Of a stretch of 61,425 nt of DNA, positions 15,094 through 35,237 are shown in pieces (positions within the stretch are counted from its first letter, which is position 1; every line of letters begins with the position of its first letter). The stretch covers positions 1-61,425 of the forward strand of contig CADCRH010000041.1 in assembly GCA_902803805.1 (NCBI GenBank), in the 5' to 3' direction. This DNA comes from an uncultured Ruminococcus sp. (GTDB lineage Bacteria; Bacillota; Clostridia; Oscillospirales; Acutalibacteraceae). A program made the position numbers and the translations under genes. The notes below the pieces were generated by a model. That model did no database searches. It was not told where the DNA came from and worked only from the letters and a program-made list of their open reading frames with translations.

Positions 15094-15094
15094 A

Positions 15095-18748: not shown

Positions 18749-18760
18749 TATTCTAAAATG

Positions 18761-18794
18761 TGGCTGTCGTAAAAGCAAAAATTTTGCGGCAGCC
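18761..18794 (+). terminator. Hairpin just after the DUF4132 stop (weak terminator)
   Basis: GGCTGTCG..CGGCAGCC stem with one G-U pair. The downstream T-tract is poor. Confidence 0.4.
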
Positions 18795-18975
18795 TTAAAC
18801 TTTGAAAAAGTACTTTTTATTTTTGCCTGATAATTGACAGTATTTTCTAAAAATACTTTTCTTGTAAGTTGCCCACCGACCAAAGTTTGCAACACTCTTC
18901 ACAACGACAGATTTTTCTATCAAATATTTGGTGGTACACAGACCGTATAACGAAAACAGATAGATTATAATAGAA

Positions 18976-19016
18976 CTGCAACACTATAAATGATTTTTGT
19001 AGTGTTGCAGTTTTTG
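18976..19016 (+). terminator. Strong rho-independent terminator in the intergenic gap
   Basis: CTGCAACACTA - 13-nt loop - TAGTGTTGCAG (11-bp perfect stem) followed by TTTTTGTATTTT. It lies about 230 nt beyond the preceding stop codon. Confidence 0.75.
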
Positions 19017-19138
19017 TATTTTGCCCGTCGAGTAACAATTGAACAGTTAAGTTTGGTGTATTTAAATATGCATAAAACATAAAAATAAAAATATTTTTTG
19101 TATATAATAACATAATCTCAAAAAAGAAAGTAGAGTTA

Positions 19139-19168
19139 TTGACACATCAATGCAATTTGGGATATAAT
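19139..19168 (+). promoter_or_regulatory. Sigma-70-type promoter of the FHA/kinase/giant-protein operon
   Basis: TTGACA - 18 nt - TATAAT, about 80 nt upstream of the ATG at 19250. The leader contains a GGTCGAA..TTCGACC hairpin. Confidence 0.65.
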
Positions 19169-19249
19169 TGATATGGTATAGTAGGTCGAATTATATGTTT
19201 TTGGTTTTTCGACCAATAAAAATTATTAATAGAGTAAGGTGTTTTAAAT

Positions 19250-20284
19250 ATGAAACTGAAAGTCCTGATATTGGAATCTGATTCTAATTATCTTCAAAGA
19301 ATTTCCTCTCTGCTGAGTACAAAATATAATGATGAACTGGATGTGTATTCTTTTGACGATTACACTAAGGCGCTGAAAAGTGCCAAGGAAAATGAGATAG
19401 ATGTGTTTCTTGCATCGGAAGATTTTGATGTATCAAGAAAAAAAATTCCGGGTAAATGTGCTTTTGCATATCTGGCAGAATCTCCAAATGAAGAAACGAT
19501 AAAAGACCAAAAGGCAATTTTTAAGTTTGTAAAAATCAATGACCTTTATGAAAGCATTAAGAAAGTGTATTCCAAGTATGAATACATTCCTGAACCGGAA
19601 GTGGAAACAAAGACCGTTCTTTTTGTTTCTCCGAGCGGGGGTACAGGCTCATCGACCGCTGCGGCATCGTGTGCTGTTCATTTTGCGGCTGCCGAAAAGC
19701 GTACACTTTATGTCAATCTTGAAAAGCTGACATCTGCCAAAAGCTTTTTTTCCGCCGAAAGCAGCGTGACTGTGAGCGACATTGCTTCACTTGTACAAAA
19801 TAATGATGACGATATTTCCTCACAGCTTGAAGAAGCTGCCGCAGAGGATGAAACAGGTATTTTTGTGATTTCCGCCGGTGAACCGAACGAAATTTTAAAG
19901 TTGAATGTTACCGATTTTGCGGTTGTTATTAACGCTTTGACTGCACTGAAACAATATGAATATATCGTAATAGACGGTGAATTTGATTTAAGTGAAGCCT
20001 CTCTTTCATTTTATCGATTAGCAGATAAGATTGTTTTCACAAGCAGCGGTTCTGAGATCTCCAATGCAAAGCTTTTGACTGCCGTGAAGTATATTTCCGA
20101 CCATCAACCGGAGCTTTCCACTAAAATAGCCGTTCTTTACAGCCGATTTGGTGAAACAAGCACGATTCCGGAATCTGATGACCTTAACAATATCGGCGGA
20201 ATACCGAATTTCGACTTTGCAGATACAAAAGAAATAATGACTCATATATCGGGTATGGGTGTATTTGATATATTGGCAGAATAA
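19250..20284 (+). CDS. TadZ/CpaE-like protein: pseudo-receiver domain plus ParA/MinD-like domain with degenerate Walker A
   Basis: The N-terminal CheY-like fold (KVLILESD..) has Ser where the phospho-acceptor Asp is expected (IDVFLAS). The P-loop position reads SGGTGSST, with both Lys of KGGxGK[ST] replaced. Confidence 0.65.
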   Translation: MKLKVLILESDSNYLQRISSLLSTKYNDELDVYSFDDYTKALKSAKENEIDVFLASEDFDVSRKKIPGKCAFAYLAESPNEETIKDQKAIFKFVKINDLYESIKKVYSKYEYIPEPEVETKTVLFVSPSGGTGSSTAAASCAVHFAAAEKRTLYVNLEKLTSAKSFFSAESSVTVSDIASLVQNNDDDISSQLEEAAAEDETGIFVISAGEPNEILKLNVTDFAVVINALTALKQYEYIVIDGEFDLSEASLSFYRLADKIVFTSSGSEISNAKLLTAVKYISDHQPELSTKIAVLYSRFGETSTIPESDDLNNIGGIPNFDFADTKEIMTHISGMGVFDILAE

Positions 20285-20304
20285 ATGCAGAAGGAGAAAC
20301 AATT

Positions 20305-21921
20305 ATGGTACAGAATTTTTCTTATGAAACACAAGGCAGCGAATCCTACCTTATATATACATTCCAAAATGACACAGCAACAAACTCCCTTATTGTCGGA
20401 ATGATGTCCAATAACAATATTGAAGGTCTTTTACCCTTTAGCTATCACCAGATGGGCTCGGCAAGATATGCACGATATAATATTTCGTCACTCATAAGTC
20501 TGAAAAAACTCTGTGAAGAGCCTGTTAAAAGAAAGATACTTTTAAATATTTTCAGAAGTATTGCGGACGCTTATATCAATTCAGAAGATTATGCGATAGA
20601 CCCACAAAATATTGTGGTTGATACGCAATATCTGTATGTCAATCCTGAAAATGGAAATGCCTTTATGATTTGTGTTCCGTGCAACACTGTTCAAAACAAT
20701 CCTGACATCAAGACTCTTTATAAAGATATTATGATGACAGCTGTTTTTGACCGTACTGAAAATTGCAGCTATATCGGTCAGATCGAACTTTATTTAAGCA
20801 GTGATTCCTTCAATCCGTCCGATTTCAAGAAATTTATTAATGAGATCGATATAGAGGAGCCACCTGCTCCGATTGAACCAGTGGTATCGGAGGAACCCGT
20901 ACCACAGCCGGAACAGGAAATATTTTTAAATGTTCCCGAAAACAATAATACACAAAATGAGATTTCCTCACAGTTGCCGGCACAGCCCGAATTGAATACA
21001 TACAATCAGCCACAGCAATATCAAACAGACAATGCCGCTTATCAGCCGCAAAACCCGTCTTATGGTTATGAGCAGCAGTATCAGCAGAATGACAGTGTTT
21101 ATCAGTCACGATACCAAAATAATAACGAATATAATCAGTATCAGCCACAATACCCGACTGATAATAACAGCTATTATCAGCAGCAGTACTCTCAGGAAAA
21201 CAGTGAGGATCATTACCAACAACAATATCAAACAGACAATAACAGTTATTATCAGCAGCAGTATTCTGTTGATAATAATGCAAATTCCTATCAACAGCCA
21301 TATCAGACCAATAACAGTTATAACTATCAACAGCAATATCAAAACAATAATGATTATACCGGTTATCAGCAATATGCCACGGATAGTAGCGCAAGTGCAT
21401 ATCAGCAGCAGTACCCCACAGATAATAACACAAACACATATCAACAACAATACTCCGCAGATAATCATACAAATAACTATTCTCAGCCATATGCAGCAGA
21501 AAACAACAGTTATGCTCAGCAAGTTGTTCAACCGAGTGTTGACCCGTATGGTGAAACGACTGTATTGGGCGCTTCCGGCTATAACGAAACGACTGTTCTC
21601 GGCGGTTCTTCCTATGAAAATATGCCTGCCGCTTACCTCATCAGACATAAAAACGGCGAAAGAGTCCTTGTCAACAAAGACGTTTTCCATATTGGCAAAG
21701 AAAAAAGTATTGCTGACTACTTTATCAGCGACAACTCCGCGATCAGCAGAAAACACGCTGAGATTGTCAAAAGAAACAATGAATATTACATCATAGACAC
21801 CAATTCAACCAATCACATTTATGTTAACGGCATAAGAATACCGTGCAATGTTGAAACACACATCATATCGGGAACGGAAATTATACTTGCCGATGAAAGA
21901 TTTGATTTTGTGATTATGTGA
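20305..21921 (+). CDS. FHA domain protein with DUF6382-like N-terminus and a Q/N/Y-rich linker
   Basis: C-terminal FHA (FHIGKEKSIADYFISDNSAISRKHAEIV..YYIIDTNSTNHIYVNG). N-terminal 180 aa resemble the FHA-associated Firmicute domain I recall as DUF6382. RBS AAGGAGAA. Confidence 0.8.
   Translation: MVQNFSYETQGSESYLIYTFQNDTATNSLIVGMMSNNNIEGLLPFSYHQMGSARYARYNISSLISLKKLCEEPVKRKILLNIFRSIADAYINSEDYAIDPQNIVVDTQYLYVNPENGNAFMICVPCNTVQNNPDIKTLYKDIMMTAVFDRTENCSYIGQIELYLSSDSFNPSDFKKFINEIDIEEPPAPIEPVVSEEPVPQPEQEIFLNVPENNNTQNEISSQLPAQPELNTYNQPQQYQTDNAAYQPQNPSYGYEQQYQQNDSVYQSRYQNNNEYNQYQPQYPTDNNSYYQQQYSQENSEDHYQQQYQTDNNSYYQQQYSVDNNANSYQQPYQTNNSYNYQQQYQNNNDYTGYQQYATDSSASAYQQQYPTDNNTNTYQQQYSADNHTNNYSQPYAAENNSYAQQVVQPSVDPYGETTVLGASGYNETTVLGGSSYENMPAAYLIRHKNGERVLVNKDVFHIGKEKSIADYFISDNSAISRKHAEIVKRNNEYYIIDTNSTNHIYVNGIRIPCNVETHIISGTEIILADERFDFVIM
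20980..21522 (+). repeat. Low-complexity Q/N/Y-rich degenerate repeats inside the FHA gene
   Basis: About 180 codons of reiterated units such as YQQQY, TDNNSYYQQQY and NNxYQ. All three other ORF-track hits here are composition artefacts. Confidence 0.9.
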
Positions 21922-21952
21922 CCATCACAGTTTCTATGAGAGGGAATCGTTT

Positions 21953-22720
21953 ATGAATTTTATTGTTTCAGCCGATACCGATGTCGGCATCAAGAAAAAG
22001 ACAAATCAGGACAGTTTGAGCGTTAAAGTAGTCAACACGCCTATGGGAAGAATGGCATTTGCGGTGCTTTGCGACGGAATGGGCGGACTTGAAAAGGGCG
22101 AAGTTGCCAGCGCAACGGCAATCAAAGCTTTCAGTAGTTGGGTCACCGAGGTACTGCCTGCACTAAGCAGTACACCGATCACTGCCGACAGCATACGTCT
22201 TGGCTGGCAGAATATCGTCACCGAAACAAACGAAAAAATCAAGCTTTACGGAAAAAGAAACGGTATCAACCTCGGTACAACAGCAGTCATTATGCTGCTG
22301 ACGCAAACCGATTATTATATTATGAATGTGGGAGATTCACGTGCATATGAGATCTTTACCGAAACGCAGCAGCTTACCAATGACCAGACATTCGTGGCGA
22401 GGGAAATAGCGCTCGGAAGAATGACTCCTCAGCAGGCACGTGTTGATAAAAGACGAAACATTCTTTTACAGTGCATCGGTGCTTCAGAAAAGGTGTATCC
22501 CGACTTTTTCACGGGGACATTAAAGAAAGATGCGGTTTATATGCTTTGCTCGGATGGCTTTCGCCACGAGATCACACCGCAGGAAATATTTGACAGACTT
22601 CGCCCCGACAGAATGACAAGCCGAGAACTTATGTCAAAAAATACGGTCGAACTGATCGAACTTAACAAGCAGCGCAGGGAAACAGACAATATTTCCGCAG
22701 CACTTGTAAGGACATATTAA
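21953..22720 (+). CDS. PP2C-family Ser/Thr phosphatase
   Basis: DTDVGIKKKTNQDS, LCDGMGG, NVGDSRAY and CSDGF motifs. Confidence 0.9.
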   Translation: MNFIVSADTDVGIKKKTNQDSLSVKVVNTPMGRMAFAVLCDGMGGLEKGEVASATAIKAFSSWVTEVLPALSSTPITADSIRLGWQNIVTETNEKIKLYGKRNGINLGTTAVIMLLTQTDYYIMNVGDSRAYEIFTETQQLTNDQTFVAREIALGRMTPQQARVDKRRNILLQCIGASEKVYPDFFTGTLKKDAVYMLCSDGFRHEITPQEIFDRLRPDRMTSRELMSKNTVELIELNKQRRETDNISAALVRTY

Positions 22721-22745
22721 AATTTAGGATTTTGAGGTATGAACT

Positions 22746-24521
22746 ATGCTTGAAATAGGCTCACTTGTTGACGGTAAATATAAAATACTTAATAAAGTCG
22801 GTCAGGGCGGTATGAGTGTTGTTTATCTTGCTATGAACGAAAAGGCAAATAAGCAATGGGCAATCAAAGAGGTACGAAAAGACGGCATCAAGGATTTTGA
22901 AGTGGTCAAGCAGGGACTGATCGTTGAAACCGATATGCTGAAAAAATTAAGTCATCCGAACCTGCCGAGTATTATTGACGTAATAGAAAATGATGATACT
23001 TTTCTGATCGTAATGGACTATATTCAAGGTAATCCTCTGAATAAAACACTGGAAGAATACGGCGCTCAGCCGCAGGAATATGTCATCGAATGGGCAAAAC
23101 AGCTTTGCGATGTTCTCGGTTATCTTCACTCACGCAAGCCTCCTATTATTTACCGTGATATGAAACCTGCCAATATTATGCTGAAACCTGACGGAAACGT
23201 AACACTAATCGATTTTGGTACGGCACGTGAATATAAAGAAAAAAATATTGCCGATACCACCTGTCTTGGTACTGTCGGCTATGCTGCTCCGGAGCAGTTC
23301 GGAGGAATGGGACAGACTGACGCACGAACCGATATATATTGTCTTGGTGCAACACTGTACCACCTTGTAACGGGAATGAACCCTTGTGAACCGCCGTATG
23401 AAATAAAGCCCATCAGACAAATCAATCCTTCCTTGTCCAACGGTCTTGAAAAAATCATTCTCAAATGTACACAGCGCGACCCCAACGACAGGTATCAATC
23501 CTGTGCGGAGCTTATGTATGCATTGGAGCATTACGACGAAATAGATGAAAAGTACCGAAAAAAAGCGTGGAAAAGAGTAACCATTTTTTCGGTCAGTGTT
23601 TTATTGATGATCGCCTTTTTGGGAACATCAATATGGAGCGATATAGCTGCTGTTTCACAAAGAAGTGAAGATTACGATTACAAACTTTCAAAAGCAAAAA
23701 CCTTGCAGGATTATAAAAGCGTCATTTTGATAGATCCGACAAGAGAGGACGCTTATCTGAAACTTGTCGAATACTGTAAAGACAACGACGGACAAATTAC
23801 AGATGACGAAATAGAATGTTTTAATGAGATCGATATTGGTATTAACGACAAAAGTAATATCAACGGCAGCGTCAAGGTTCTTGATGAGCTGAAAGAATCC
23901 AATCCAAAGGGCTATTTTGAAGTATGTTATTCTATCGGCTTTGAAATAATTTCGTTGAAACAGTCCAATTCAATTGATAGTGTTTTAAGTGACTCTGTGC
24001 AGTGGTTCAGCAAAGCAAATGAGGTCTTTAAAGAAACGCAAGATCAAAAAGAATTAAAGATGGATGATTTGAATGCCAAAAATGAATTGGCAGAGCTGTT
24101 TTGTTCTGTCAATAATTGCTTGACCGTCATTGCCCAGAACAATAACTCAAGACTTTCCAGTGCAGAGGACAGAGAAAAAGTATATCACGATCTTTTTGAT
24201 ACTATCGGTCAGATTAAGGATAAAATCAAAAACAGTAAAAGTTTTACCGATCATAATAGTACGACCGATGCTGCCAGTGTCCAGATTCTTGTCATCAATA
24301 TTTTGACAGATCTGATCAATAAGGAAACGGAAGGTTTCCAAAATATCACCTTAGAGAGAAACGGTAATTCGATAGAATTATCTGATATTTTAGACCTGTT
24401 AAAAGATATGAAACAGATGATTAAAGAAGCGAGAGATATTTCTCAGTTAAAAAGTACAGTTGATGAGTACGGCGTTGACACAAAATTGGATGATCTTATC
24501 AAGAAATTTGAAAGCAATTAA
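22746..24521 (+). CDS. Hanks-type Ser/Thr protein kinase, single TM, non-PASTA extracellular domain
   Basis: GQGGMSVVY, WAIKEV, IIYRDMKPANIM, IDFGTA and GYAAPEQ. TM segment VTIFSVSVLLMIAFLGTSIW, followed by about 290 aa that are largely helical in appearance and have no PASTA repeats. Confidence 0.9.
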   Translation: MLEIGSLVDGKYKILNKVGQGGMSVVYLAMNEKANKQWAIKEVRKDGIKDFEVVKQGLIVETDMLKKLSHPNLPSIIDVIENDDTFLIVMDYIQGNPLNKTLEEYGAQPQEYVIEWAKQLCDVLGYLHSRKPPIIYRDMKPANIMLKPDGNVTLIDFGTAREYKEKNIADTTCLGTVGYAAPEQFGGMGQTDARTDIYCLGATLYHLVTGMNPCEPPYEIKPIRQINPSLSNGLEKIILKCTQRDPNDRYQSCAELMYALEHYDEIDEKYRKKAWKRVTIFSVSVLLMIAFLGTSIWSDIAAVSQRSEDYDYKLSKAKTLQDYKSVILIDPTREDAYLKLVEYCKDNDGQITDDEIECFNEIDIGINDKSNINGSVKVLDELKESNPKGYFEVCYSIGFEIISLKQSNSIDSVLSDSVQWFSKANEVFKETQDQKELKMDDLNAKNELAELFCSVNNCLTVIAQNNNSRLSSAEDREKVYHDLFDTIGQIKDKIKNSKSFTDHNSTTDAASVQILVINILTDLINKETEGFQNITLERNGNSIELSDILDLLKDMKQMIKEARDISQLKSTVDEYGVDTKLDDLIKKFESN

Positions 24522-24535
24522 AGGAGGGAAAGACA

Positions 24536-25114
24536 ATGACATACGAAACATATCAATTGATCCATACGCTTTCGCTGATAATGGCAGGAGTGATGCTTGT
24601 TGTTTCTGTTATTTTGTTCTTTTTTCTTCACATACCGAAATCTTTCGGTGTCATAACGGGATTTTCCGCCAAAAAGGCGATCAAGTCCATTAACAGCCGT
24701 ACAGAACAGTCGGCAAGTGAACGACTTGTCAGCGGCAAGGGCAAAAAAGCAGGAAAAAAATATGCGGATGATCTTTATACCCCGTCGGGAAGAATACAGC
24801 CAAAAACAGTGATTTCCCTTGACGAAAATGTGCCTGTCACCAGTAAGATCGCCACCGATCAGATTGCAAAAACGGCAGCCAATTCTACGACCGTGCTCTC
24901 CGGCAGTGAAACAACTGTACTGGACACCGATCCGACAGCCAACATTAATGCTACCACACTGCTTCCGCAGCCGCCATTTGACAGTTCCACGACCGTGCTG
25001 TCCGGTAATGAAACAACTGTGCTTCAGCAGCCCCCGACAGGCACGGCAGCGGTACAAAGCAAATTTGTTATTGAGGTCGATATTACCTTTATCCATACAA
25101 ATGAGATTATTTAA
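24536..25114 (+). CDS. Small single-pass membrane protein with repeated (S/E)TTVL motifs
   Basis: RBS AAGGAGGG 8 nt upstream. N-terminal TM LSLIMAGVMLVVSVILFFF. Four TTVL motifs plus one ATTLL variant in aa 117-163. A mirror ORF of equal length on the minus strand was rejected. Confidence 0.7.
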   Translation: MTYETYQLIHTLSLIMAGVMLVVSVILFFFLHIPKSFGVITGFSAKKAIKSINSRTEQSASERLVSGKGKKAGKKYADDLYTPSGRIQPKTVISLDENVPVTSKIATDQIAKTAANSTTVLSGSETTVLDTDPTANINATTLLPQPPFDSSTTVLSGNETTVLQQPPTGTAAVQSKFVIEVDITFIHTNEII

Positions 25115-25129
25115 AGGAGATGAACAGGT

Positions 25130-25630
25130 TTGAAGGAAAGTAAAAATATGTCAAATCTTCTCCGTATATCAATTGCGGGATTTCTTTTGATGTCATTAAC
25201 ATTCTTGCTGATGCCCCTGAACAGTACCGCCCCGGAAGAAGGAACCGACATTTTCAGAATCATTGTCGGAGTATTGTTTTGGTTGTTTCTGATCATCGGT
25301 ATTGCGGCACAAATAATGCTTTCAAAAGAATTTAAAAAATCGGAAAAGAAAAAAGCAAAAAGGAGAATAGGGCTTTTTTCTTTTCTGCAAAACCGTGAAG
25401 CCGCAGTTTTTGATTTGCTTTGTTTGATCGGCTTTATCGCAATTGCTTTTATGGTGCTTTTTACCGACGGAACAATGTACTTTGCATATATATGCACAAG
25501 TGTGTTTGTTTTTTCTTTCTGTATGCATTGTATTTTAAACGGGAAAATTTACAATACCTTAAAAAGAAAACCAAACGCAAAGAAAAAATCCGAGAAGGAG
25601 GAGAAAAATAATGATAAGATTAAAGCTTAA
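25130..25630 (+). CDS. Polytopic membrane protein with Lys-rich tail
   Basis: About four hydrophobic helices and a KKKSEKEEKNNDKIKA tail. TTG start at 25130 after AAAGGAG, with an alternative ATG at 25148. Operon context. Confidence 0.6.
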   Translation: MKESKNMSNLLRISIAGFLLMSLTFLLMPLNSTAPEEGTDIFRIIVGVLFWLFLIIGIAAQIMLSKEFKKSEKKKAKRRIGLFSFLQNREAAVFDLLCLIGFIAIAFMVLFTDGTMYFAYICTSVFVFSFCMHCILNGKIYNTLKRKPNAKKKSEKEEKNNDKIKA

Positions 25631-28600
25631 TCTTTCTGATAGGCTTATCTCGCTGCTGCTTGCATTGCTTATCTTTTTTGCAAGCATAACGATTGTGCTT
25701 ACCGTCAACAGTGATACAAGTGCATTAGAGGACGAGAACAGTACACCGTCATATTCGCTTGAAATTCATTACAAGGATTCCAAGGGAGAAAGCCATCTTG
25801 CAGGAGAAGGTGCAGTTGTCACCTACAGGATCACCCGTTATCCTAAAGACGGAAATGTTCTGGCTGCCAACAGAACAGCCAAAACAGACGAAAACGGTAA
25901 AGTGCAGCTGGGAATCAGAACAGATATTGAAGAAGAACCCGATACCGTATATATTATGGTGAAATCTGTTTCCTATTACGGCTATACATTTAACAGATCC
26001 GACGAATATTTTGAATTAAATAAAGGCATTCCGCTTGCTATTCAGCTTACCTCTCAAAGTCAGGTGAATTTGCTTGGTGTGATCACGGGCGCTGATGGTA
26101 AACCTGTAAGCGGTGCAAAAATCAAAGTCAGTCACTCGACGGCTCCGGCAGGAAGCAAGACAGTTGCAGCGTCGGACGATGGTACCTTCAAAACACCGGT
26201 TTATATCAATCAAAACTATGACCTGACCATCGCCGCAAACGGTTATCAGACAAAGACAGTCAGTGGCATATTTGCGTCTAAGGATGAATCAGCAGATAAA
26301 ATATATCAGCTTTCCGAGCCGATACGGTTGGAAGAAAAACTCACAGATGAGAATATTGGCTTTCAAATTTCCGAAGAAACCGTTGAATATATTGACAAAG
26401 ACAATCATTCTTTCTTTAATAACGAACTGTTAAAAAGCGCCGATAATGACGGTAAAGTGACTTATACTGTGACACTTAACGGAGCCAAAACATCTGCGGT
26501 ATATGAAGACAATACCCTTGATTTTTCGGATTTCGGTCCCGGAAAATATATTGTAACAGCGAATATCAAAGGAGCATCAAAGTATTTTGATGCAAAAACC
26601 TCATTTACCTTGAATGTTGTTGACACAAACTTCAAATTCAATTCCGAAGTAGTAACAGCAGAAATGACTGATGGAGAAATAGAGATTCAAGAAATTTTCG
26701 GAAATTACGACAAAAATCTCATTACCTATACTTTGAGCGATAAAAAGGGAACCATTGCCGAGCTGAATCAGGATACAAAAATCATATCCTTTAAAAAATA
26801 CGGTTCGGTAACGGTGACAGCATATTACAACGAAGAAAAATTTAAAGAAAATTCAAAGTTATATCAAAGCATTGCGGCTTCATATGAATTGCAAATCGTT
26901 CATCAGCCGACAAAGATCGCATTTAAGAAATCAAATGTACAGGTAAGATACGGCGCTGACGATAATCAATATACCCAAAGTGTAAAAACAAATGATGACA
27001 ACCTGACAGCAAAAGAGAAAAAAGAAATTCTGTCAAAAATCAGATATTCTGTCAGCGAACAAACCGATTCTTCCGGTAATCCCGTTACCGACAGAAATAT
27101 TGTTGAGGTAGATCGGGAAACCGGTTTGGTAAAGATCAATGAAGCAGGTAAAGTTACAATTTCCGCTGCCATCGAAGACAGTGACAATTTTTCTGCCGAT
27201 ACGGTGGACTATGAGCTGAATATATTAAAAGCAAATCAAGATACCGATCAGCACGAAAATATTTATTTTGAGAATACAAAAGAGAAAGCTCAGGATACCG
27301 TTACTTTCAGCAGTGAAACGTCAACGCTTACATATACCAATCATCTGATTGACAACAGCGGAATAGACGGTACCGTAACATATGAAATTACCGCAGGCTC
27401 AGACCTTGCTTCCATCAACAGCAAAACAGGTACCCTTACTATCAATAAAGCAGGTACCATAACGGTCAGAGCAATCAAAACAGCGAAAGAAAGCAATAAC
27501 TATACCAACAGTATCAGAACCTATCGACTGATTGTTGAAAAGGGCATTCCGGATTTTCAATATGAATTATCCGAAGAAAATATTTACTACGGAAAGAATG
27601 TCATAGCAACACAAAAGCCGACACTTTCCACAAAAATGAAAAAGGACGAAAAACCGGAGATCACCTACACCGTTGCCAACCTCAGCAACAGTCCTGTTCA
27701 TCATATTAACAGCAGCAACGGCAATGTTCAGTTAAACAACAAAGAACCGATCGGCAGTTTTGAGGTAACGGCAACACTTGCCGAAACTGATAAATATGCA
27801 TCAATCAGTATTTCCTATATTATCAATATTTCATATGCCAAAGAAGAAGAATACACCGTAACCGAAACACAGTACGATCAGTGGTATAACACTGCAAACG
27901 GTGTTACCTTTACAGCAAATGACGGCTACAGTATCAGTGCAAATAATTCTTTTGCAGAGAATAATTGGAAGAAAACAGAGTACAAATATACAACAGCAAA
28001 CAAAAATCAGGATGTTGTATTTTATCTCAGAAACAATGAAACGAAGGCAATTTCGGAGATAACGGCAAGCAACATCAATATTGACTATACCGTTCCGACA
28101 GAGCTTGAAATCAATTATTCCGAAACTTCAAAATCATTTTTGCAGGAGATAGGAGATCGTATTTTCTTCGGACTTTTCGGTTCATCGGAAAATGAGATCA
28201 AAGTGACGGTCAAGGCTCACGACAATATCGCGGAAATCATTGAATTCAGATATTATTATCAAGCTGATGAATCTGCAAATGGTATATATGGCAGTACATC
28301 CGGCGGAGACACCATTACCGAGAAGGATATTAAAAATATCGGCGATGGTTATTATGAAGCCGAATTCACGATTCCTGCGGAATTCAAAGGAAAAATCGGC
28401 TTTACCGCTAAAAATGCCGCAGGTCTTGAATCGGAAAAGGAATTTGATAAAACTATTATCGTTGACAAAACCGCTCCGAAAACGGAAATTACCTTTAATG
28501 CAGAACCTTCAAACGAGAATAAAAGCAACGGTGCCAAGTATTTCAACAATGATTCCGTAGAAGTTCAGTTCAAGGTTACAGAACCCAATTTCAGTCACAG

Positions 28601-31600
28601 CGAAGAAGAAACAGCCGTAATCATTAATGATAAGCTTCAAAAGGATATTCAATGGACTCGTCAGCCCGACAGCAATGATTATATTGCTAAAAAGGAGCTT
28701 GTAGCAGGTCAGGAATACCGTATTCAGCTTTCTTCTCAGGATATTGGCGGTCAGCAGTCTGACGAATCGACCGTTAATGAAACAATTGTGATTGACAATA
28801 TAGCGCCATCCGATCAAAATATGTCTATCAGATACAGTAAAGCAACCACATTCTGGGAAAATATCCTCGGAACTGTATTCTATTGGGGCTATCAGGGAAG
28901 TGTCACTGTCACCTTTGAAGCAGCGGATGATCTTTCGGGTATCGATCATATTGATTGGACATATACAAGACAAGATAACAGCAAGGATGAAGACGCTTAT
29001 ATCAGTGACAGAAACGCTGAGAATATGAGTGGTACCGTAAAAATTTCCGAGGACGGAAAAACCGCATCCATTACTTTGAAAGACGATTACTACCGCGGCA
29101 GTTTTTCCTTTACCGCAACGGATATTGCAGGAAACAAAAGCAATCCTAAAAAGGACGACGGTACCGTTATTGTTGTCGATCAAATCGCACCGGAAAGTAC
29201 GGTTACCTTTGAAAATGTGGAACAAACCGCAGATGATATTCTTTACTACAAGAAAGACGCAGAGATAACAGTAAATGTTGAGGAAGTCAACTTCTATCCC
29301 GATGATATAACATTAAAATTACATCATCTTGAAAATTCTGATGAAGATACTGTTATTTCCGACCTGAAATGGAATCAAGAAACCGACAGCAATGACCATT
29401 TTGTAACATCATTCAAAGTAGAGAAAGACGGTAAATATCAGATCATAATGACTGCCAAAGATCATATTGATAATGTAAATGATCATATTACCGTAGAAAC
29501 CAAGGATACGGTCGGTAAAAAAACAGATACGATCACAGCAGAAGCAGAAACCGATCCGGAGTCGGGAGAAACATACTATACTTCTCCGATATTTGTGATC
29601 GATACCAAAGCGCCTGTTGTTACCGTGAAACATTCAACGAATAATATTAAAAATAAATATGACGACATTGAATATTTTGCGACTAAAAAAGAATTCACCA
29701 TCGAAATTGACGAGCATAATTTCAGACCCGATCTTGTTACGATCAAGGTCAATGCAACGGATGTATCCAGAAAAACAGTTAAGCTTTCGGACGATTTTAC
29801 ATCCGCTTTAAAGAATGATAAGCTGTGGGAGCATAACGGTGATATTCATACCGCCACCATCACTTTCTCTGATGATGCGAAATATCAATTTACTGTTGAC
29901 TGCAACGATCTTTCAAAGAATGAAGCACATACTTGCCAATCCAATGCATTTGTGATCGACAAAACAGCTCCGTCAACAAAGGGAATGACTGTTTCTTACA
30001 GTAAAGAGCTTAATTTCTGGGAGAAAATTGTAGATGGTATTACCTTTGGATATTATGCATATCAAAAAAGTGTTACCGTTACTTTGACTGCCAACGATAG
30101 TACTTCAGGCATTGACTATATCAAATGGACTTATACTAAAGAAAGCGGTGCAAGCTCCCAAAATTTGAAAAGCCAATCGAATACTATCAAAGTAACAAAC
30201 AGTAATCTTTCCTCTGACGGAAAAACCGCAACAGTGAAGTTTACACTGAACGACAATCAGTACCGAGGAAATATTTCCTTTACTGCCATTGATAAATCAG
30301 GCAACAGCAGCGAGGTAAAGTCCGATGATCATCATATCATTATTGTTGACAGTGTAGCTCCGATTCTTGATTATGTAGAACTCAGTGCGGCAAACCGTGT
30401 GGTAAATGCATCAACATTGAAAGATGTCACAGGCTATGATTACAAAACAAGAAAATTGGGTTACAAGCTGTATTACAGCGGTACTGCGACTGCAAAAATT
30501 TCCATTACCGAAGCAAACTTCTATTCCGAAGATGTAAAGGTAGAACTTGAAAGGACATATAACCAAAAAACTTCCAAAATCAATGCTTCCGTCAAGTGGA
30601 CAAACAACGGTAAAGACAATTATATCGGAACATTTTCCATATCGGATGAGGGCGAATATATTGCTAACATAAGCTATACAGATCGTTCTACCAATGAAAT
30701 GGTAAGCTATACTTCCAATGAGATCATCATTGATAAAACGAATCCGAAAATCAATGTTTCCTACTCACCAAATAATGTCATCAGAACGGTCAAAGAAAGA
30801 AAATATTATAATAAGGAACAAACAGCAACCGTAACCGTCAGCGAGCACAACTTCCGTGCAGACGATATTGAAGTAAAGGTAACGGGTGTTGATGTTGCGA
30901 ATAAGTCCGTCATTGATGAAACCTATTACACATCCTACTTTAAGAACAGAAGCAAATGGACAAAAAACGGAGATACCTATACTGCAACTATCACTTATTC
31001 AACCGATGCTAACTATACCTTTGATATTTCCTACAAAGATCTTGCCAATCGCAGTGCCGGAACATATCAGCAGGATAAGTTTACAGTTGATACAACCCCT
31101 CCGGAAAAATTGGAAATCAGCTACAGCCCAAGCGTGCTTGACAGAATTATTGAAACTATCACATTCAAATTCTATCAGGCTCCCGTAACCGTTACCGTAT
31201 CGGCTTATGATTCTACAACGCCTGTCAATGAATTTGATACAAGCGGCTTGAATCTAAATGATACAATTCGTCAGAGTCTTTCCGGTGCAAAAATCAGCCG
31301 AAGCGGTTATAAAAATACAGCAACCTTCCAAATTCCGCAAAGTGCTCTGACAGAAGCAACGCAGTTCAACGGAACAATAAGATTCACGGCATACGATACT
31401 TCCAACAACAAAACCGAACGTAGCGATAACAAACGAATTGTTGTTGATAACATTTCGCCAAGAGCAGAGATAAGCTATAATGCTCCCGTAAACACAGTCG
31501 GTTCTGTTTGGTATTACAGCGGAAATGTCAATGCATCGGTATCTATTACCGAAGCGAATTTCTACTCCGAAGATGTCAGAATTGAACTGGAAAGAACCCA

Positions 31601-34007
31601 TAACGGAAATACTGCCGTTGTGATTCCTTCCGTAAACTGGAAAAATGATGGAAACGATAGGCATACAGGAACGTTCTCCATATTGGATGAGGGCGAATAT
31701 ATTGTCAGGATCAACTATACCGACCGTTCATCCAATTCAATGGCAGGTTATACTTCCAATGAAATTGTAGTAGATCATACAGATCCGGTAATCAATGTTG
31801 CTTACTCGCCAAACAATCCATCCAATACTGTTAACGGATACAAGTATTACAATGAAGTACAGACAGCAACCATCACTATCACAGAGCATAACTTCCGTGC
31901 CAATGAAGTGATTGCAGAGGTAAAAGGTGTCGATGTTACAGGTAAATCTGTTGTTGATGGAAATAATTATCAATCACATCTGAACAACAGCAACAGTTGG
32001 ACGAAAAATGGAGATACCTATACGGCAAAGATAACCTATTCTGCCGATGCAAACTACACTTTCAGTATTTCCTATAAAGATCTTGCCAACCGCAGTGCTG
32101 CACCTTATTCCAATGACAAGTTTACAGTTGACAAAACACCACCAAAGGATTTGAAGATCAAATACAGTCAAAGTGTGATTGACAAAGTGATCGGAACCAT
32201 TACATTCGGATTCTATAAAGCACCTGTAGCGGTCACAATATCGGCATCCGATGATACCACACCAATCAGTAAATTTGATACAAGTGGTTTAAGCAAGATC
32301 GACTCCAAGGCAATCACCAAAGCACTTTCCGGTAACAACATACAAAGAAACAGTTATGAAAATACTGCAACTTTCCAGATTCCGCAGGAAGCTTTGACAG
32401 CAGCAACGCAATTTAACGGTACCATAAGCTTTACAGCATATGATACCTCAAACAACAAAACCGATCTTAACGATACAAAAAGAGTTGTAGTTGACAATAT
32501 CGCTCCGACTGTTGAAGTAAGCTATAATGAACCTGTCAAAACTGTTAACGGAACCGCCTATTACAGCGGTACGGTGAATGCAGCGGTATCGATTGCCGAA
32601 GCAAATTTCTATTCGGAAGATGTAAAGGTAGTACTTACAAGAAAGAATGACTCATCAACTAATCCTTCCGTCAATTGGACAGATGGTGTCGGAAATCAAC
32701 ATACAGGCACATTTTCTATTGCCGATGAGGGAGAGTATATCATAAACGTCAGCTATACTGACCGTTCCGGCAACGAAATGACCAATTATGAATCAAATAC
32801 GATCATTGTTGACAAGACCTCTCCGACGCTTACAGTAAGCAATATCAAACATCACAGTGCAACAAGCAGTGAAACATTCGGATTTACTGTTAAATCCACT
32901 GACGAGCATTTTGATAAAAATTCCTTTAAGGCAACCCTTACCGCTCTTGTAAGAAATAATTCGGGTGAAATGCAAACGAAAAATATTGACCTGAGCAAAT
33001 ACCTCAAAAAAGAAAGCGATACGTCTTATTCGTATGTCATTGACAATCTTACGGATAACGCTGTTTATACACTTTCCTGCTCCTCCAAAGACTTGGCGGG
33101 CAACAGTATCGACAAAATGAAGCTTTCTGATAATAAGACATATGACAAAACCGAATTTTCAATCAACCGAAACGGTTCAACTTTCTCTGTTAACAATAAT
33201 ACCGAAAAACTGATTGAGAATCGTATTGTATATAGTGTCAATGAGGATATTGTGATTCAGGAGGTCAACGTTACACCTATTGAGTCATACAGTATAAAGC
33301 TCAATGACAAAGAACTGAAAGAGGGTCAGGATTTCACAGCAGAGATCAAAAACAGTGATACGGAATGGTGCAGTGTTACATACACAATTGACAAATCACT
33401 GTTTGAAAATGAAGCTGACTATTCTATTAAAATTGATACTACCGACAAAGCCGGTTCGACTTCATATAATGATAAAAAGTCCTCAACGATCAACTTTACA
33501 GTTGATAAAAGCAAACCGACAATTACCGTTAGCGGTATTGAGGACGGAGGACGCTATCAGGTAGGCGAACAAAAGGTAACAGCCATTGTTAAGGATAACA
33601 GCGGCATTAAGAGTCTGAAAATTACAGTTCTTGATTCGTCAGGCAATCCGATATTGGATTCTTCCGGTAAAAATATCAGTGTCAGATTTGACCATTCCGG
33701 AGATGCTCTTAATGATTATTTGGATAGTAACGGCAGGGACATCAAAGTAGCCTTCACTGTTCCGGAAGGACTTGACAGCCAAGTAGTTATTGAGTGTTGT
33801 GACAACGCTGTAGGCACAGACGGAAAACCAAACCAAACCATCAAAACCATTACAGGAATTACCGTATCACAGAATAACTGGATTATTTTCTATGCAAACA
33901 AGCCGTTGTTCTATGGCTGTCTTATCGGCGGACTGGCAATTTTGATTGCACTTGCCTTTACCATTGCCATTATTGTAAGAAAGAAAAGAGCAAAGAGCGA
34001 ATCATAG
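25611..34007 (+). CDS. Giant (2798 aa) cell-surface Ig-like repeat protein, N-terminal signal/anchor and C-terminal TM tail, no LPXTG
   Basis: RBS GAAGGAGGAG. N-terminal hydrophobic LISLLLALLIFFASITIVL. A CarboxypepD_reg-like segment (GVITGADGKPVSGAKIKV..). More than 15 domain boundaries of the form VVDxxAP. C-terminal LIGGLAILIALAFTIAIIVRKKRAK. Confidence 0.9.
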   Translation: MIRLKLNLSDRLISLLLALLIFFASITIVLTVNSDTSALEDENSTPSYSLEIHYKDSKGESHLAGEGAVVTYRITRYPKDGNVLAANRTAKTDENGKVQLGIRTDIEEEPDTVYIMVKSVSYYGYTFNRSDEYFELNKGIPLAIQLTSQSQVNLLGVITGADGKPVSGAKIKVSHSTAPAGSKTVAASDDGTFKTPVYINQNYDLTIAANGYQTKTVSGIFASKDESADKIYQLSEPIRLEEKLTDENIGFQISEETVEYIDKDNHSFFNNELLKSADNDGKVTYTVTLNGAKTSAVYEDNTLDFSDFGPGKYIVTANIKGASKYFDAKTSFTLNVVDTNFKFNSEVVTAEMTDGEIEIQEIFGNYDKNLITYTLSDKKGTIAELNQDTKIISFKKYGSVTVTAYYNEEKFKENSKLYQSIAASYELQIVHQPTKIAFKKSNVQVRYGADDNQYTQSVKTNDDNLTAKEKKEILSKIRYSVSEQTDSSGNPVTDRNIVEVDRETGLVKINEAGKVTISAAIEDSDNFSADTVDYELNILKANQDTDQHENIYFENTKEKAQDTVTFSSETSTLTYTNHLIDNSGIDGTVTYEITAGSDLASINSKTGTLTINKAGTITVRAIKTAKESNNYTNSIRTYRLIVEKGIPDFQYELSEENIYYGKNVIATQKPTLSTKMKKDEKPEITYTVANLSNSPVHHINSSNGNVQLNNKEPIGSFEVTATLAETDKYASISISYIINISYAKEEEYTVTETQYDQWYNTANGVTFTANDGYSISANNSFAENNWKKTEYKYTTANKNQDVVFYLRNNETKAISEITASNINIDYTVPTELEINYSETSKSFLQEIGDRIFFGLFGSSENEIKVTVKAHDNIAEIIEFRYYYQADESANGIYGSTSGGDTITEKDIKNIGDGYYEAEFTIPAEFKGKIGFTAKNAAGLESEKEFDKTIIVDKTAPKTEITFNAEPSNENKSNGAKYFNNDSVEVQFKVTEPNFSHSEEETAVIINDKLQKDIQWTRQPDSNDYIAKKELVAGQEYRIQLSSQDIGGQQSDESTVNETIVIDNIAPSDQNMSIRYSKATTFWENILGTVFYWGYQGSVTVTFEAADDLSGIDHIDWTYTRQDNSKDEDAYISDRNAENMSGTVKISEDGKTASITLKDDYYRGSFSFTATDIAGNKSNPKKDDGTVIVVDQIAPESTVTFENVEQTADDILYYKKDAEITVNVEEVNFYPDDITLKLHHLENSDEDTVISDLKWNQETDSNDHFVTSFKVEKDGKYQIIMTAKDHIDNVNDHITVETKDTVGKKTDTITAEAETDPESGETYYTSPIFVIDTKAPVVTVKHSTNNIKNKYDDIEYFATKKEFTIEIDEHNFRPDLVTIKVNATDVSRKTVKLSDDFTSALKNDKLWEHNGDIHTATITFSDDAKYQFTVDCNDLSKNEAHTCQSNAFVIDKTAPSTKGMTVSYSKELNFWEKIVDGITFGYYAYQKSVTVTLTANDSTSGIDYIKWTYTKESGASSQNLKSQSNTIKVTNSNLSSDGKTATVKFTLNDNQYRGNISFTAIDKSGNSSEVKSDDHHIIIVDSVAPILDYVELSAANRVVNASTLKDVTGYDYKTRKLGYKLYYSGTATAKISITEANFYSEDVKVELERTYNQKTSKINASVKWTNNGKDNYIGTFSISDEGEYIANISYTDRSTNEMVSYTSNEIIIDKTNPKINVSYSPNNVIRTVKERKYYNKEQTATVTVSEHNFRADDIEVKVTGVDVANKSVIDETYYTSYFKNRSKWTKNGDTYTATITYSTDANYTFDISYKDLANRSAGTYQQDKFTVDTTPPEKLEISYSPSVLDRIIETITFKFYQAPVTVTVSAYDSTTPVNEFDTSGLNLNDTIRQSLSGAKISRSGYKNTATFQIPQSALTEATQFNGTIRFTAYDTSNNKTERSDNKRIVVDNISPRAEISYNAPVNTVGSVWYYSGNVNASVSITEANFYSEDVRIELERTHNGNTAVVIPSVNWKNDGNDRHTGTFSILDEGEYIVRINYTDRSSNSMAGYTSNEIVVDHTDPVINVAYSPNNPSNTVNGYKYYNEVQTATITITEHNFRANEVIAEVKGVDVTGKSVVDGNNYQSHLNNSNSWTKNGDTYTAKITYSADANYTFSISYKDLANRSAAPYSNDKFTVDKTPPKDLKIKYSQSVIDKVIGTITFGFYKAPVAVTISASDDTTPISKFDTSGLSKIDSKAITKALSGNNIQRNSYENTATFQIPQEALTAATQFNGTISFTAYDTSNNKTDLNDTKRVVVDNIAPTVEVSYNEPVKTVNGTAYYSGTVNAAVSIAEANFYSEDVKVVLTRKNDSSTNPSVNWTDGVGNQHTGTFSIADEGEYIINVSYTDRSGNEMTNYESNTIIVDKTSPTLTVSNIKHHSATSSETFGFTVKSTDEHFDKNSFKATLTALVRNNSGEMQTKNIDLSKYLKKESDTSYSYVIDNLTDNAVYTLSCSSKDLAGNSIDKMKLSDNKTYDKTEFSINRNGSTFSVNNNTEKLIENRIVYSVNEDIVIQEVNVTPIESYSIKLNDKELKEGQDFTAEIKNSDTEWCSVTYTIDKSLFENEADYSIKIDTTDKAGSTSYNDKKSSTINFTVDKSKPTITVSGIEDGGRYQVGEQKVTAIVKDNSGIKSLKITVLDSSGNPILDSSGKNISVRFDHSGDALNDYLDSNGRDIKVAFTVPEGLDSQVVIECCDNAVGTDGKPNQTIKTITGITVSQNNWIIFYANKPLFYGCLIGGLAILIALAFTIAIIVRKKRAKSES
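30345..31442 (+). repeat. Tandem coding repeat unit 1 (about 1.1 kb, three Ig-like modules)
   Basis: Runs from VDSVAP to the next VDNISP boundary. It aligns by eye over its whole length with unit 2 (for example ITEANFYSEDV, YTDRS.N.M..YTSNEI, SEHNFRA, WTKNGDTYTA.ITYS.DANYTF.ISYKDLANRSA). Confidence 0.9.
31443..32489 (+). repeat. Tandem coding repeat unit 2
   Basis: Second copy of the same three-module unit (VDNISP to VDNIAP). Confidence 0.9.
32490..32807 (+). repeat. Tandem coding repeat, partial unit 3
   Basis: First module only (VDNIAPTVEVSYNEP..AEANFYSEDVKV..YTDRSGNEM..VDKTSP). Confidence 0.85.
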
Positions 34008-34044
34008 AATCACAAAAAACATTCTGTTATATACACAACAAAAA

Positions 34045-34075
34045 ATCAGCTCCTTTTTCGGGAGCTGATTTTTTG
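34045..34075. terminator. Bidirectional terminator between the giant gene and the convergent S1 gene
   Basis: AAAAAATCAGCTCC-TTTTTC-GGGAGCTGATTTTTT. Confidence 0.85.
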
Positions 34076-34095
34076 TGTTTATCAGTCAATATCTG

Positions 34096-35064
34096 TTATC
34101 TTGCTATCGCACGCAGGGGCATTTCTTCAATGTCACCGCATAAATCGAAATGAGTTTCAATGATTTTTTCCGATGTCGGCGGAGAATAGTAGAAGCTGTT
34201 CATATGTGAACCGTCAAAGAAATATTCCGGCTGCTGTGGACGGTATTCATAGTCAAAGGTATCTATAATGATCAGTTTGATTTTCATTCTGTTGGGAATG
34301 ATATTTTTGATATATACACTTGCCTGTTGTCCTGCACGGATATTGTCCTTCATCTCAGCAAGACCTGCCAGATTGGGTGCAAGCTCTACAAACGCACCAT
34401 ATTCCTCAACGGAGCGAATAATGCCAGCAACGGTTTCTCCGACTTCAAAGCGGCAGGCATTTTCTTCCCACGTTCCGAGAAGTTCTTTATGAGTCAGGCT
34501 GATTCTGCCGTTTTCTATTGTTTTGACAATGGCTTTTATCTCCATTCCTACAGAGAAACGTTCACGGGGATGGTCTATTCTTGATACCGATATTGAATCG
34601 ATCGGTAAAAGCGAAACAATACCGCAGCCTATATCTGCGAATGCGCCGAACGAGTCCAGATGTGTCACTCTTGCGTCAATGACATCTCCGGGTAAAAGTC
34701 CCGAAATATATTCACGCATACATCTTTCCTGCGCAAGCCGTCTTGAAAGCATTGCGACGGTTCGTCCCGATTCATTTTTTCTGAATTCGGTGATAACGAA
34801 GCATACAGGTCGGTTCACTCTGGAGATGACCGCAATATCTCTTACAGTGCCTTCCCGTATTCCTATGGCGCCCTCCTCGCGTGGAATGATTCCTTTTATG
34901 CATCCAAGGTCAACAATCAGATTGTGACCCGAATCGCAAACAATTGCTCTGGCTTCGAGTATTTTTCCGTCGTGATATGCTTCCGTCAGTTGTGACAGCG
35001 ACTGCATTGCGGAAAGATTCTCCACCGTGTTGATAAGTCTGCCTTCAGGATAATATCCTGTCAT
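34096..35064 (-). CDS. S1 RNA-binding domain protein (multiple S1 repeats)
   Basis: Repeated S1-like units (GDVIDARVTHLDSFGAFADIG, GETVAGIIRSVEEYGAFVELAP). I prefer the ATG (MTGYYPEG) over the TTG at 35094. Confidence 0.8.
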   Translation of the reverse strand: MTGYYPEGRLINTVENLSAMQSLSQLTEAYHDGKILEARAIVCDSGHNLIVDLGCIKGIIPREEGAIGIREGTVRDIAVISRVNRPVCFVITEFRKNESGRTVAMLSRRLAQERCMREYISGLLPGDVIDARVTHLDSFGAFADIGCGIVSLLPIDSISVSRIDHPRERFSVGMEIKAIVKTIENGRISLTHKELLGTWEENACRFEVGETVAGIIRSVEEYGAFVELAPNLAGLAEMKDNIRAGQQASVYIKNIIPNRMKIKLIIIDTFDYEYRPQQPEYFFDGSHMNSFYYSPPTSEKIIETHFDLCGDIEEMPLRAIAR

Positions 35065-35237
35065 TTTGCTTTCATTCCTTTCTTGGTGAGGCAAAGCCTC
35101 CTGTGCTTTTCACAACATTTATATGAACCCCAATAATGCTTTATGACGTATATATGTTATTTTCGGTATCATACTTGCATTTATCCGATTTATATTATAA
35201 AATAATATGTAACTGTTGAACAAGGGGAGATCAATGT

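Follow-up and report, generated by a model that had tools for sequence, protein, structure and literature searches.

We have analyzed a stretch of 61,425 nucleotides from an uncultured Ruminococcus sp. (contig CADCRH010000041.1, positions 1 to 61,425; hereafter the window), in which seven co-directional open reading frames (ORFs) on the + strand, at 19250-34007, form an operon. It starts with a gene for a TadZ-like protein and ends with one for a giant membrane protein, and between them lie the genes of a threonine phosphorylation switch. Our analysis indicates that this operon is probably, although well short of certainty, a stand-alone (split) version of a module of phospho-threonine control and envelope functions whose place is in the extended Tad (tight-adherence, type IVc) pilus loci of Clostridia.

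The first gene, g1 (19250-20284, 344 aa, denoted Z), matches the Pfam family PF21194 TadZ-like_ARD with E = 4.6e-33 and, weakly, AAA_31. It is followed by g2 (J, 20305-21921, 538 aa), with a DUF6382 and an FHA domain in Pfam, by g3 (P, 21953-22720, 255 aa), a PP2C-type Ser/Thr phosphatase (Pfam PP2C_2), and by g4 (K, 22746-24521, 591 aa), a Hanks-type Ser/Thr kinase (Pkinase, E = 3e-50). Transmembrane (TM) scans and motif coordinates show g5 (t, the protein with ETTVL repeats, 24536-25114, 192 aa) as a single-pass membrane protein with its N-terminus outside and its C-terminus inside, while g6 (m, 25130-25630, 166 aa) has four TM segments and basic cytoplasmic loops. The last gene, g7 (GIANT, 25611-34007, 2798 aa), codes for a type I membrane protein with immunoglobulin (Ig)-like repeats, as seen by Pfam, repeat map and TM scan. 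The gaps from g1 to g6 are of 20, 31, 25, 14 and 15 nt, and g6 and g7 overlap by 20 nt. A sigma-70-type promoter (TTGACA-18-TATAAT, 19139-19168, + strand), the sole 12/12 match in the 17 kb scanned (18400-35400), and an AAGGTG ribosome-binding site precede the ATG of g1 at 19250. At the other end there is a bidirectional intrinsic terminator (34038-34076, with a 17-bp stem between an A-run and a U-run) of -24.8 kcal/mol, with z = -8.1 against shuffles, none of 200 of which folded equally well; beyond it the gene at 34096-35094 is convergent to the operon. A previous sequence-only reading of this DNA had described one promoter and one strong terminator around seven genes, junctions from a 20-nt overlap to gaps of at most 31 nt, and the same seven gene identities, and all of this was borne out, every domain it named being found by Pfam or TM scan.

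The evidence for a connection with pili comes from the relatives. A scan of a genome collection with the alignment of J gave 80 loci from Lachnospiraceae, Oscillospiraceae, Acutalibacteraceae, Ruminococcus and others (numbered here with the prefix L; the counts include some redundant assemblies and ignore kinship, ORF calling in these loci was simple, and their 10 kb flanks cut most GIANT genes). For 69 loci the sequence upstream of J extends over 6 kb or more, and in 60 of these phmmer found Tad genes there; one further locus (L049) is linked to Tad by its A24 and WG matches. The usual order is [TadZ]-TadA-TadB-TadC-Flp-TadE-like-DUF5702-lipoprotein-pseudopilin-like-A24 peptidase-TPR/WG-repeat-J-P-K-t-(m)-GIANT, and Pfam gave T2SSE, T2SSF, Flp1_like, TadE, Peptidase_A24 and WG_beta_rep among the upstream genes. 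J starts at a median distance of 15 nt from the last Tad gene (59 loci), suggesting a single transcription unit. The same association appears in a cultured organism, Anaerocolumna xylanovorans (L093), with the order TadZ-TadA-J-P-K-t-m-GIANT. GIANT is the last gene of the locus and, where its 3' end is visible, the genes that come next are unrelated (C_GCAxxG_C_C, CsoR/HMA, Macro/YlxM). The gene m was detected by phmmer in 28 ORFs of the set and is missing from some loci. The search for co-occurrence of DUF6382-FHA, TadZ-like and giant Ig-repeat genes that the sequence-only reading had proposed has thus been carried out, and it found the block conserved and mostly linked to Tad. If all the genes from TadZ to J are taken out of such a locus, the arrangement of the window is left.

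The composition of the block is not the same everywhere. Some loci have Tad genes followed by Z-J-P and no kinase (L008, L009, L090), and in L066 J is itself a gene of the Tad core operon. At the end of the Tad locus of L096 (10001-14856) a J of 394 aa is followed by a VWA-FHA protein (514 aa) and then by PP2C, a variant that recalls the set of vWA, kinase and PP2C proteins of the type VII secretion system (T7SS) class T7SSc. In four other loci (L034, L035, L051 and L057, at about 10000-21700) J and PP2C are followed by a kinase of about 950-980 aa and then by a protein of about 1200-1270 aa in place of K-t-m-GIANT; these have no t gene, and their J has no ETTVL motifs. Pfam, run on L034 alone, found He_PIG and choline-binding repeats in the large protein and a weak WD40-like match at the C-terminus of the kinase. 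The constant partners are the TadZ-type protein, J and usually PP2C, and K, t, m and GIANT are their commonest extension.

The protein encoded by g1 fits well with this picture. It has an atypical receiver domain (ARD; aa 1-108) and an atypical MinD/ParA-like domain with a degenerate Walker A (SPSGGTGSST), and it aligns over its full length with the TadZ structure of Eubacterium rectale (3FKQ, E = 1.7e-51); by PF21194 and 3FKQ it is a TadZ/CpaE-type localisation protein. Its homologs at 35-39% identity are the ordinary TadZ proteins heading clostridial Tad loci with TadA (T2SSE), TadB, TadC (T2SSF), Flp1_like and DUF5702. It had been called a pseudo-ATPase, and the Walker A is indeed degenerate, but the family alignment shows that the P-loop SPxGGxGxS[ST] is common to all members, including the TadZ of bona fide Tad loci and the crystallised E. 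rectale protein, so that this is a trait of the whole clostridial TadZ family. Since in most relatives the module is distal to full Tad loci, the TadZ-like gene of the window can be seen as a remnant of, or a link to, a Tad system and not as an isolated curiosity.

No Tad machinery was found next to the operon by Pfam, phmmer or tblastn. Neither phmmer nor tblastn with two TadA references (E > 0.1) gave a TadA/CpaF match in the window, tblastn with references from L004 and L044 found no TadB/TadC, Flp, TadE or A24 peptidase there, and neither Tad machinery nor T7SS core genes were found where the contig, of about 80 kb, extends beyond the window (by about 10 kb on the left and 6 kb on the right). 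The statement that the operon has no Tad or T7SS gene therefore holds in cis, but it misses that relatives carry the block of FHA, PP2C, kinase, TTVL-repeat and giant proteins as the distal part of a full Tad locus. How the two could be reconciled is illustrated by the metagenome-assembled genome RUG14822. It has an operon of the window type (L012) and, on a separate contig, the tail of a Tad locus (L014) with an A24 peptidase (1e-75), a WG protein (3e-130), a paralog of J and an Ig/PKD protein of 1205 aa, and no kinase or phosphatase. The two kinds of locus can coexist in one genome, and action in trans is plausible, although not certain, for the organism of the window.

The stand-alone version is by no means unique. 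The identical order Z-J-P-K-t-m-GIANT was found in L001/L012, in L006/L042 and in L091, each with different flanking genes; in the first two pairs the TadZ at the head is 43-44% identical to g1, and L091, the fourth stand-alone example, was found via the search with J. The unit recurs in at least three to four lineages with unrelated flanks, as expected from the earlier proposal that the genes form one conserved syntenic unit. Neighbour-joining trees of Z, J, P, K, t and m place the window with L001 and L006 in a separate clade, with L091 apart. This clade, together with the recurrence, indicates that the stand-alone arrangement is old and maintained and is neither an assembly artefact nor the result of recent decay. 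The DUF6382 family as a whole comprises about 1900 clusters at 50% identity, and we found no plasmid-borne homologs.

Such persistence leads to the alternative that survives best, namely that the operon is an autonomous system for a giant adhesin, in which the TadZ-like hub and the switch made of FHA protein, PP2C and kinase position, export or display GIANT independently of any pilus or secretion machine. The properties of GIANT are relevant here. It has an N-terminal signal or anchor, a variable N-terminal region of about 400 aa, the Ig-like repeats, a C-terminal TM segment and an RKKRAK tail; in Pfam CarboxypepD_reg was above the cut-off and Big_3_3 below it. Between aa ~800 and 2420 there are supermodules of about 350 aa with about three Ig-like domains each, the last two copies being 60-67% identical (mapped with sliding 200-aa windows, as a self-BLAST of the whole protein gave the identity match only). 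Its orthologs (n=48) share the repeat region, and the first ~400 residues are poorly conserved. The complete ones have cleavable-looking signal peptides, a juxtamembrane motif FYANKxLFYG, one TM segment and a basic tail, and no LPx[TSA]G was found when the last 80 aa were checked in g7 and in five complete orthologs. Judged from these features GIANT is a stalk that is anchored at its C-terminus and whose distal end is variable. Having a Sec-type signal peptide and a TM anchor of its own, it needs no dedicated exporter, the variability of the distal N-terminus is as in adhesins, the arrangement without Tad has been kept with seven intact genes and in a clade of its own, and no Tad or T7SS gene was found within about 80 kb. 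However, the module directly continues a Tad locus, at a spacing like that within operons, in about 88% of the informative loci. Besides, J is found with Tad genes even where kinase or GIANT are missing (L008, L066, L090), so that the primary partner of this adaptor looks like the Tad machine, and RUG14822 has a J paralog in a Tad locus in addition to its Tad-less operon. We therefore regard an autonomous adhesin system as unlikely, while still giving it a real chance.

A second alternative is that the operon is the orphan accessory half of a system like T7SSe or T7SSj, with EssC, WXG100 and YukD encoded elsewhere and GIANT acting as a wall-spanning conduit like TseI. The list of parts of T7SSe/j is the same, and T7SSf includes a TadZ-like protein, TsfV (PMC11217815). 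Furthermore, EssC-like ORFs do occur in two of the loci retrieved with J or Z (L079 and L092), in which a short and divergent J paralog adjoins a ParA-like gene, YukD, EssC and WXG100, the pattern of T7SSf. Nevertheless, these are only 2 of 96 loci, and the J paralogs linked to T7SS have a short length of 352-364 aa and share just 13-17% identity over the DUF6382 domain, while J, P, K, t, m and GIANT of the window group with the Tad-linked set. In the window itself no FtsK_SpoIIIE domain is present among ORFs of at least 125 aa, and tblastn with two EssC references gave only E > 0.3; WXG100 and YukD were not found by tblastn with the L079 and L092 references, a search of limited sensitivity for such divergent families. 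All this makes the reading as half of a T7SS improbable. One of the two loci deserves a mention of its own, L079 (1-21611, Ruminococcus sp. RGIG2051), where a Tad locus, a full-length J, a short J, a ParA/TadZ-like gene, YukD, an EssC of 1501 aa and WXG100 are found head to tail. In this locus DUF6382-FHA genes connect a Tad system with a T7SSf-like one.

The operon could also be a decaying remnant, left by an internal deletion from TadA through the WG-repeat gene and drifting without function. A deletion between TadZ and J of an ancestral Z-TadA-...-J locus gives exactly the order observed, and Z-TadA-J is found in L093. But all seven ORFs are intact, including one of 8.4 kb, the catalytic and binding motifs are kept, the promoter is a perfect match to the consensus, and the arrangement has been maintained in lineages whose TadZ is only 43-44% identical, which leaves decay with a very small probability.

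The kinase and the phosphatase look catalytically active from their motifs. P has the metal-binding motifs DGMGG, GDSR, SDG and DN intact, and K has AIK, YRDMKPAN, DFG and APE. K consists of a cytoplasmic kinase domain (aa 1-270), one TM segment (~aa 279-301) and an extracytoplasmic domain of 290 aa without a Pfam match; no PASTA domain was found by Pfam. The notion that they are an ordinary cell-envelope or cell-division pair of the PrkC/PrpC type, placed by chance beside a surface protein gene, starts from generic kinase and PP2C domains whose best NCBIfam matches are Stk1 and Stp1, yet it is refuted by domain architecture (no PASTA, and scores of 216 bits against a cut-off of 450 for Stk1, over model positions 1-275 or the kinase domain only, and of 163 against 230 for Stp1, both below the equivalog cut-offs) and by synteny (the order J-P-K-t-(m)-GIANT is kept in dozens of genomes), so that we give this possibility, which the sequence-only reading had itself raised as a danger to its proposal, hardly any weight.

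The adaptor J has three parts, the DUF6382 domain (aa 1-183, nt 20305-20853), a disordered linker of about 250 aa (aa 184-439, nt 20854-21621), rich in Q, Y and N and of prion-like low complexity, and the FHA domain (aa 440-538, nt 21622-21918). The length and composition of the linker vary widely among orthologs, whose J has between 476 and 734 aa; in L006 (9364-11211) the linker contains tandem AEPDITGVPDMT repeats. In the window the repetitive composition of the linker also gives rise to long ORFs, antisense or out of frame, at 20837-21796. An AlphaFold2 model of J from an alignment of 66 sequences was confident for both domains, with a pLDDT above 96 for FHA, and had a pLDDT below 50 for the linker. 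When the full-length model was searched with Foldseek only FHA domains were retrieved, the best structural matches being EmbR, OdhI, GarA and DgcB, which bind phosphothreonine (pThr), with E ~1e-8. We also modelled the N-terminal domain alone, with the window fragment as first row over full-length homologs (pLDDT 91.8, pTM 0.87). In this case the top match in PDB was TraF-N (8cba, E = 6e-5), followed by protein kinases with TMq up to 0.59. A profile of 52 DUF6382 domains had no match among PDB sequences even at E = 10, and the sequence contains no catalytic Lys, HRD or DFG kinase motif. DUF6382 thus models as a pseudokinase fold like those of EssB, YukC and TraF. In the FHA domain G464, S481, R482, H484 and N503 are invariant in the 66-sequence alignment. 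TraF-N is a structural homolog of EssB/YukC, and the pseudokinase of EssB/YukC is a hub that binds the FHA domains of EssC/YukB (PMC13037476).

A candidate for the phosphorylated element was found in both J and t. J has two GETTVLG motifs (nt 21553-21567 and 21586-21600), the copies being five residues apart and ending about 12 aa before FHA, and this tandem is nearly invariant in the 66-sequence alignment. In t there are five cytoplasmic xTT[VL]L motifs (nt 24884-25024) and a conserved C-terminal motif, FVIEVDITFIHTNEII, which across orthologs reads FxIEYEITFIHTxEII. The orthologs of t share the TM segment, a KAI juxtamembrane segment, the ETTVL repeats (two to six copies in the cytoplasmic tail, between the juxtamembrane segment and the C-terminal motif) and this C-terminal motif. 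We counted 101 ETT[VIL]L in 61 orthologs of t and 108 in 87 orthologs of J, versus 4 in about 480,000 aa of other ORFs of the loci. The density in t is 9.3 per 1000 aa against a background of 0.008, an enrichment of about 1000-fold, and in J the enrichment is about 300-fold. The two proteins also go together, as J has the motif in 49 of the 53 loci with t and in 5 of the 14 without it (Fisher p = 2e-5, with kinship ignored). One of the four matches outside t and J is a single ETTVLD at aa 323 of a DUF5682 protein in the neighbourhood of the operon (9488-11902). It is probably a coincidence, since about two such matches would be expected by chance according to a rough estimate from typical residue frequencies. 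FHA domains usually prefer Leu at position +3 from the pThr, and the first Thr of ETTVL has Leu at +3.

Putting these elements together, the most reasonable reading still seems to us the one originally proposed, in which a switch based on phospho-threonine is coupled to a giant membrane protein with Ig repeats, and it might work as follows. The conserved extracytoplasmic domain of K would sense a cue from the envelope or the surface, and K would phosphorylate the first Thr of E-T-T-V-L in the tail of t and in the linker of J, creating a pThr with Leu at +3. The FHA domain of J could then bind either the phospho-motif of J itself, in a closed state such as that of GarA and OdhI, for which self-binding of a phospho-motif is an established mechanism, or the multivalent phospho-tail of t, and the latter would recruit J to the membrane. 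There the EssB/YukC-like pseudokinase domain may act as a docking hub, probably with the TadZ-like positioning protein, and organise or position the partner machine, until the PP2C phosphatase resets the switch. GIANT, with more than 20 Ig-like domains, would be the envelope-spanning or adhesive output partner and m its membrane accessory. The motor and pilin of the partner pilus would be expected elsewhere in the genome, as in RUG14822.

Several points weigh against a phospho-threonine module of Tad loci. Tad machinery is lacking both from the window and from the ~16 kb of contig around it, and hence we infer the pilus link in this organism from its relatives only. The canonical Arg in the GR loop of FHA is Lys (K465) in at least 90% of the J family, which makes pThr binding plausible but not certain. 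One relative of the window type, L006, has a J without the ETTVL motif. The variable N-terminus of GIANT fits an adhesin, but the protein could just as well have a structural role in spanning the wall, similar to that suggested for TsdI/TseI. Where phosphorylation takes place, which cue the kinase senses and which proteins contact each other are all matters of prediction.

A broader and more tentative idea, rather doubtful at present, is that J-P-K-t-m-GIANT is a portable and self-contained module, gated by phospho-threonine and built from an EssB-like pseudokinase-FHA adaptor, a dedicated membrane substrate with several ETTVL motifs and a giant Ig-like stalk. It would plug into various nanomachines of Gram-positive bacteria, Tad pili in most Clostridia and T7SS in T7SSe/j, and would stand here alone with a positioner of the TadZ type. 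If this were true the parts listed at present as core components of T7SSe would not be specific to T7SS, and ETTVL would represent a new and predictable recognition code for kinase and FHA domain. The components assigned of late to T7SSe/j may, rather, form a mobile unit of regulatory and envelope functions that different machines share. In gut and rumen Firmicutes Tad pili are major factors in colonisation. To our knowledge nothing is known about the control of Tad pili in monoderms, and we know of few substrates of Ser/Thr-kinase signalling in anaerobes. Against this background the analysis ties the widespread and uncharacterised DUF6382 family to Tad loci, the predicted fold suggests for it a role as an EssB-like pseudokinase hub, and the predicted phospho-code E-pT-T-V-L comes with named substrates, t and J. 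The Tad-less operon, being a natural minimal version, should help to separate the function of the module itself from that of the pilus.

The flanks of the operon contain housekeeping or unrelated genes. Upstream are NrdD/NrdG and a five-gene cluster (8346-18748, + strand) coding for a MoxR-type AAA_5 ATPase, DUF5682 (804 aa), VWA_CoxE, a SWIM-zinc-finger protein (687 aa) and DUF4132/HEAT (1217 aa). PADLOC gave no match for this cluster, which we take to resemble the uncharacterised gene set yehL/M/P/Q-yehI of E. coli. A strong terminator (18972-19014) closes this preceding transcription unit. We considered whether the operon is tied to the MoxR/VWA cluster and rejected it, given the terminator between them and the different upstream genes in every relative. 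A role in anti-phage defence was likewise discarded; PADLOC gave generic kinase-domain matches for g4, weak ones for g1 and g3 and none for g2. No riboswitch or other known RNA was found in the leader or in the window. Downstream there are an S1-domain gene, GH3, PHP, panBC, coaBC and HtrA, and further on a cluster for a cell-wall glycopolymer (52119-61326, + strand) with GT2, CDP-glycerol glycerophosphotransferase, Stealth CR1/CR2 and acyltransferase genes, which runs on in the contig extension (L094) with MBOAT, DHHW and FkbH_N genes and may have a bearing on the wall through which GIANT has to pass. The window also codes for a 576-aa protein (2801-4531, - strand) with two N-terminal helix-turn-helix domains of the Xre type and a long C-terminal region without a match. 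In the source contig to the left of the window (L095, 2694-4956) small PqqD and ScmC genes adjoin two Oxidored_nitro genes and may be a maturation cluster for a ribosomally synthesised and post-translationally modified peptide.

One of the known systems with which the operon can be compared is the clostridial Tad locus. The TadZ of these loci (3FKQ) has the same architecture of ARD and atypical ATPase and the same degenerate P-loop as g1, and the block g2-g7 is the usual 3' extension of such loci. The differences are the lack in the window of TadA, TadB/C, Flp, TadE and prepilin peptidase, and the position of g1 in a separate clade with the TadZ of other Tad-less operons.

The sequence-only reading knew of no described system with this composition, which does not hold, as (Garrett et al., 2024, Microlife) list the parts as components of T7SSe/j and T7SSf (PMC11217815). 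In T7SSe/j they describe a DUF6382-FHA protein (TseJ), a PP2C (TseF), a kinase with a TM segment (TseD), a protein that has one TM segment and is unstructured over a stretch on the cytoplasmic side (TseK/TseH), and a large Ig-like protein that starts with a signal peptide and has a TM segment at the C-terminus (TseI) (PMC11217815). Compared by published description, this is the same inventory of domains and the same topology as in the operon, and the same idea of control by threonine phosphorylation. However, the operon has no EssC-type ATPase, WXG100 or YukD, its relatives are attached to Tad loci and not to T7SS, and it adds the 4-TM protein and the TadZ head gene. T7SSf includes the TadZ-like TsfV (ARD and ATPase), TsfJ and TsfF (PMC11217815), so that, like the operon, it combines a TadZ-like/ParA-like protein with DUF6382-FHA and PP2C and has no Tad machinery in the cluster, but no kinase belongs to it, and TsfJ has two TM helices. 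L079 and L092, the loci that resemble T7SSf, differ as well, with J paralogs that are short and very divergent and lie beside YukD, EssC and WXG100. The same authors noted that Tad genes adjoin T7SSg and T7SSh and left the link open, and a Tad-linked J-P-K-t-GIANT block was not described (PMC11217815). In the literature on DUF5702, or on Tad with FHA and kinase in Clostridia, we found nothing beyond this work (PMC11217815). As far as we could find, the association of the whole block with Tad, the ETTVL code and the pseudokinase fold of DUF6382 are apparently new.

The threonine phosphorylation pathway of the type VI secretion system (T6SS), PpkA/PppA/Fha1 in Pseudomonas aeruginosa and PpkA-TssL-Fha in Agrobacterium (cited in PMC11217815), follows the logic proposed here for the operon. 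In this pathway a Hanks kinase of the membrane, a PP2C and an FHA adaptor control post-translationally whether an envelope machine is assembled, and the FHA protein is recruited by a membrane component that has been phosphorylated. The machine and the type of organism are unrelated, the host of the operon being a monoderm, and in the operon the FHA protein has a predicted pseudokinase domain and phospho-motifs of its own, together with a putative dedicated membrane substrate with several motifs, t.

Finally, each half of J recalls a different group of proteins. The pseudokinase fold is known from EssB/YukC of T7SSb and from TraF of the type IV secretion system of pIP501. In T7SSb the pseudokinase binds the FHA of another protein, EssC/YukB, whereas J joins both types of domain. 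Besides, EssB, YukC and TraF are membrane proteins with an extracellular domain and J is soluble, and the likeness to DUF6382 is one of TM-scores of ~0.5-0.6 only, with undetectable sequence similarity. The actinobacterial GarA and OdhI, among the best structural matches to the FHA of J, carry as J does an E-T-T-x motif shortly before FHA in the same polypeptide. They are small metabolic regulators without pseudokinase domain or membrane partner, whereas J has two copies of the motif, and further copies are carried by another protein, the membrane protein t.

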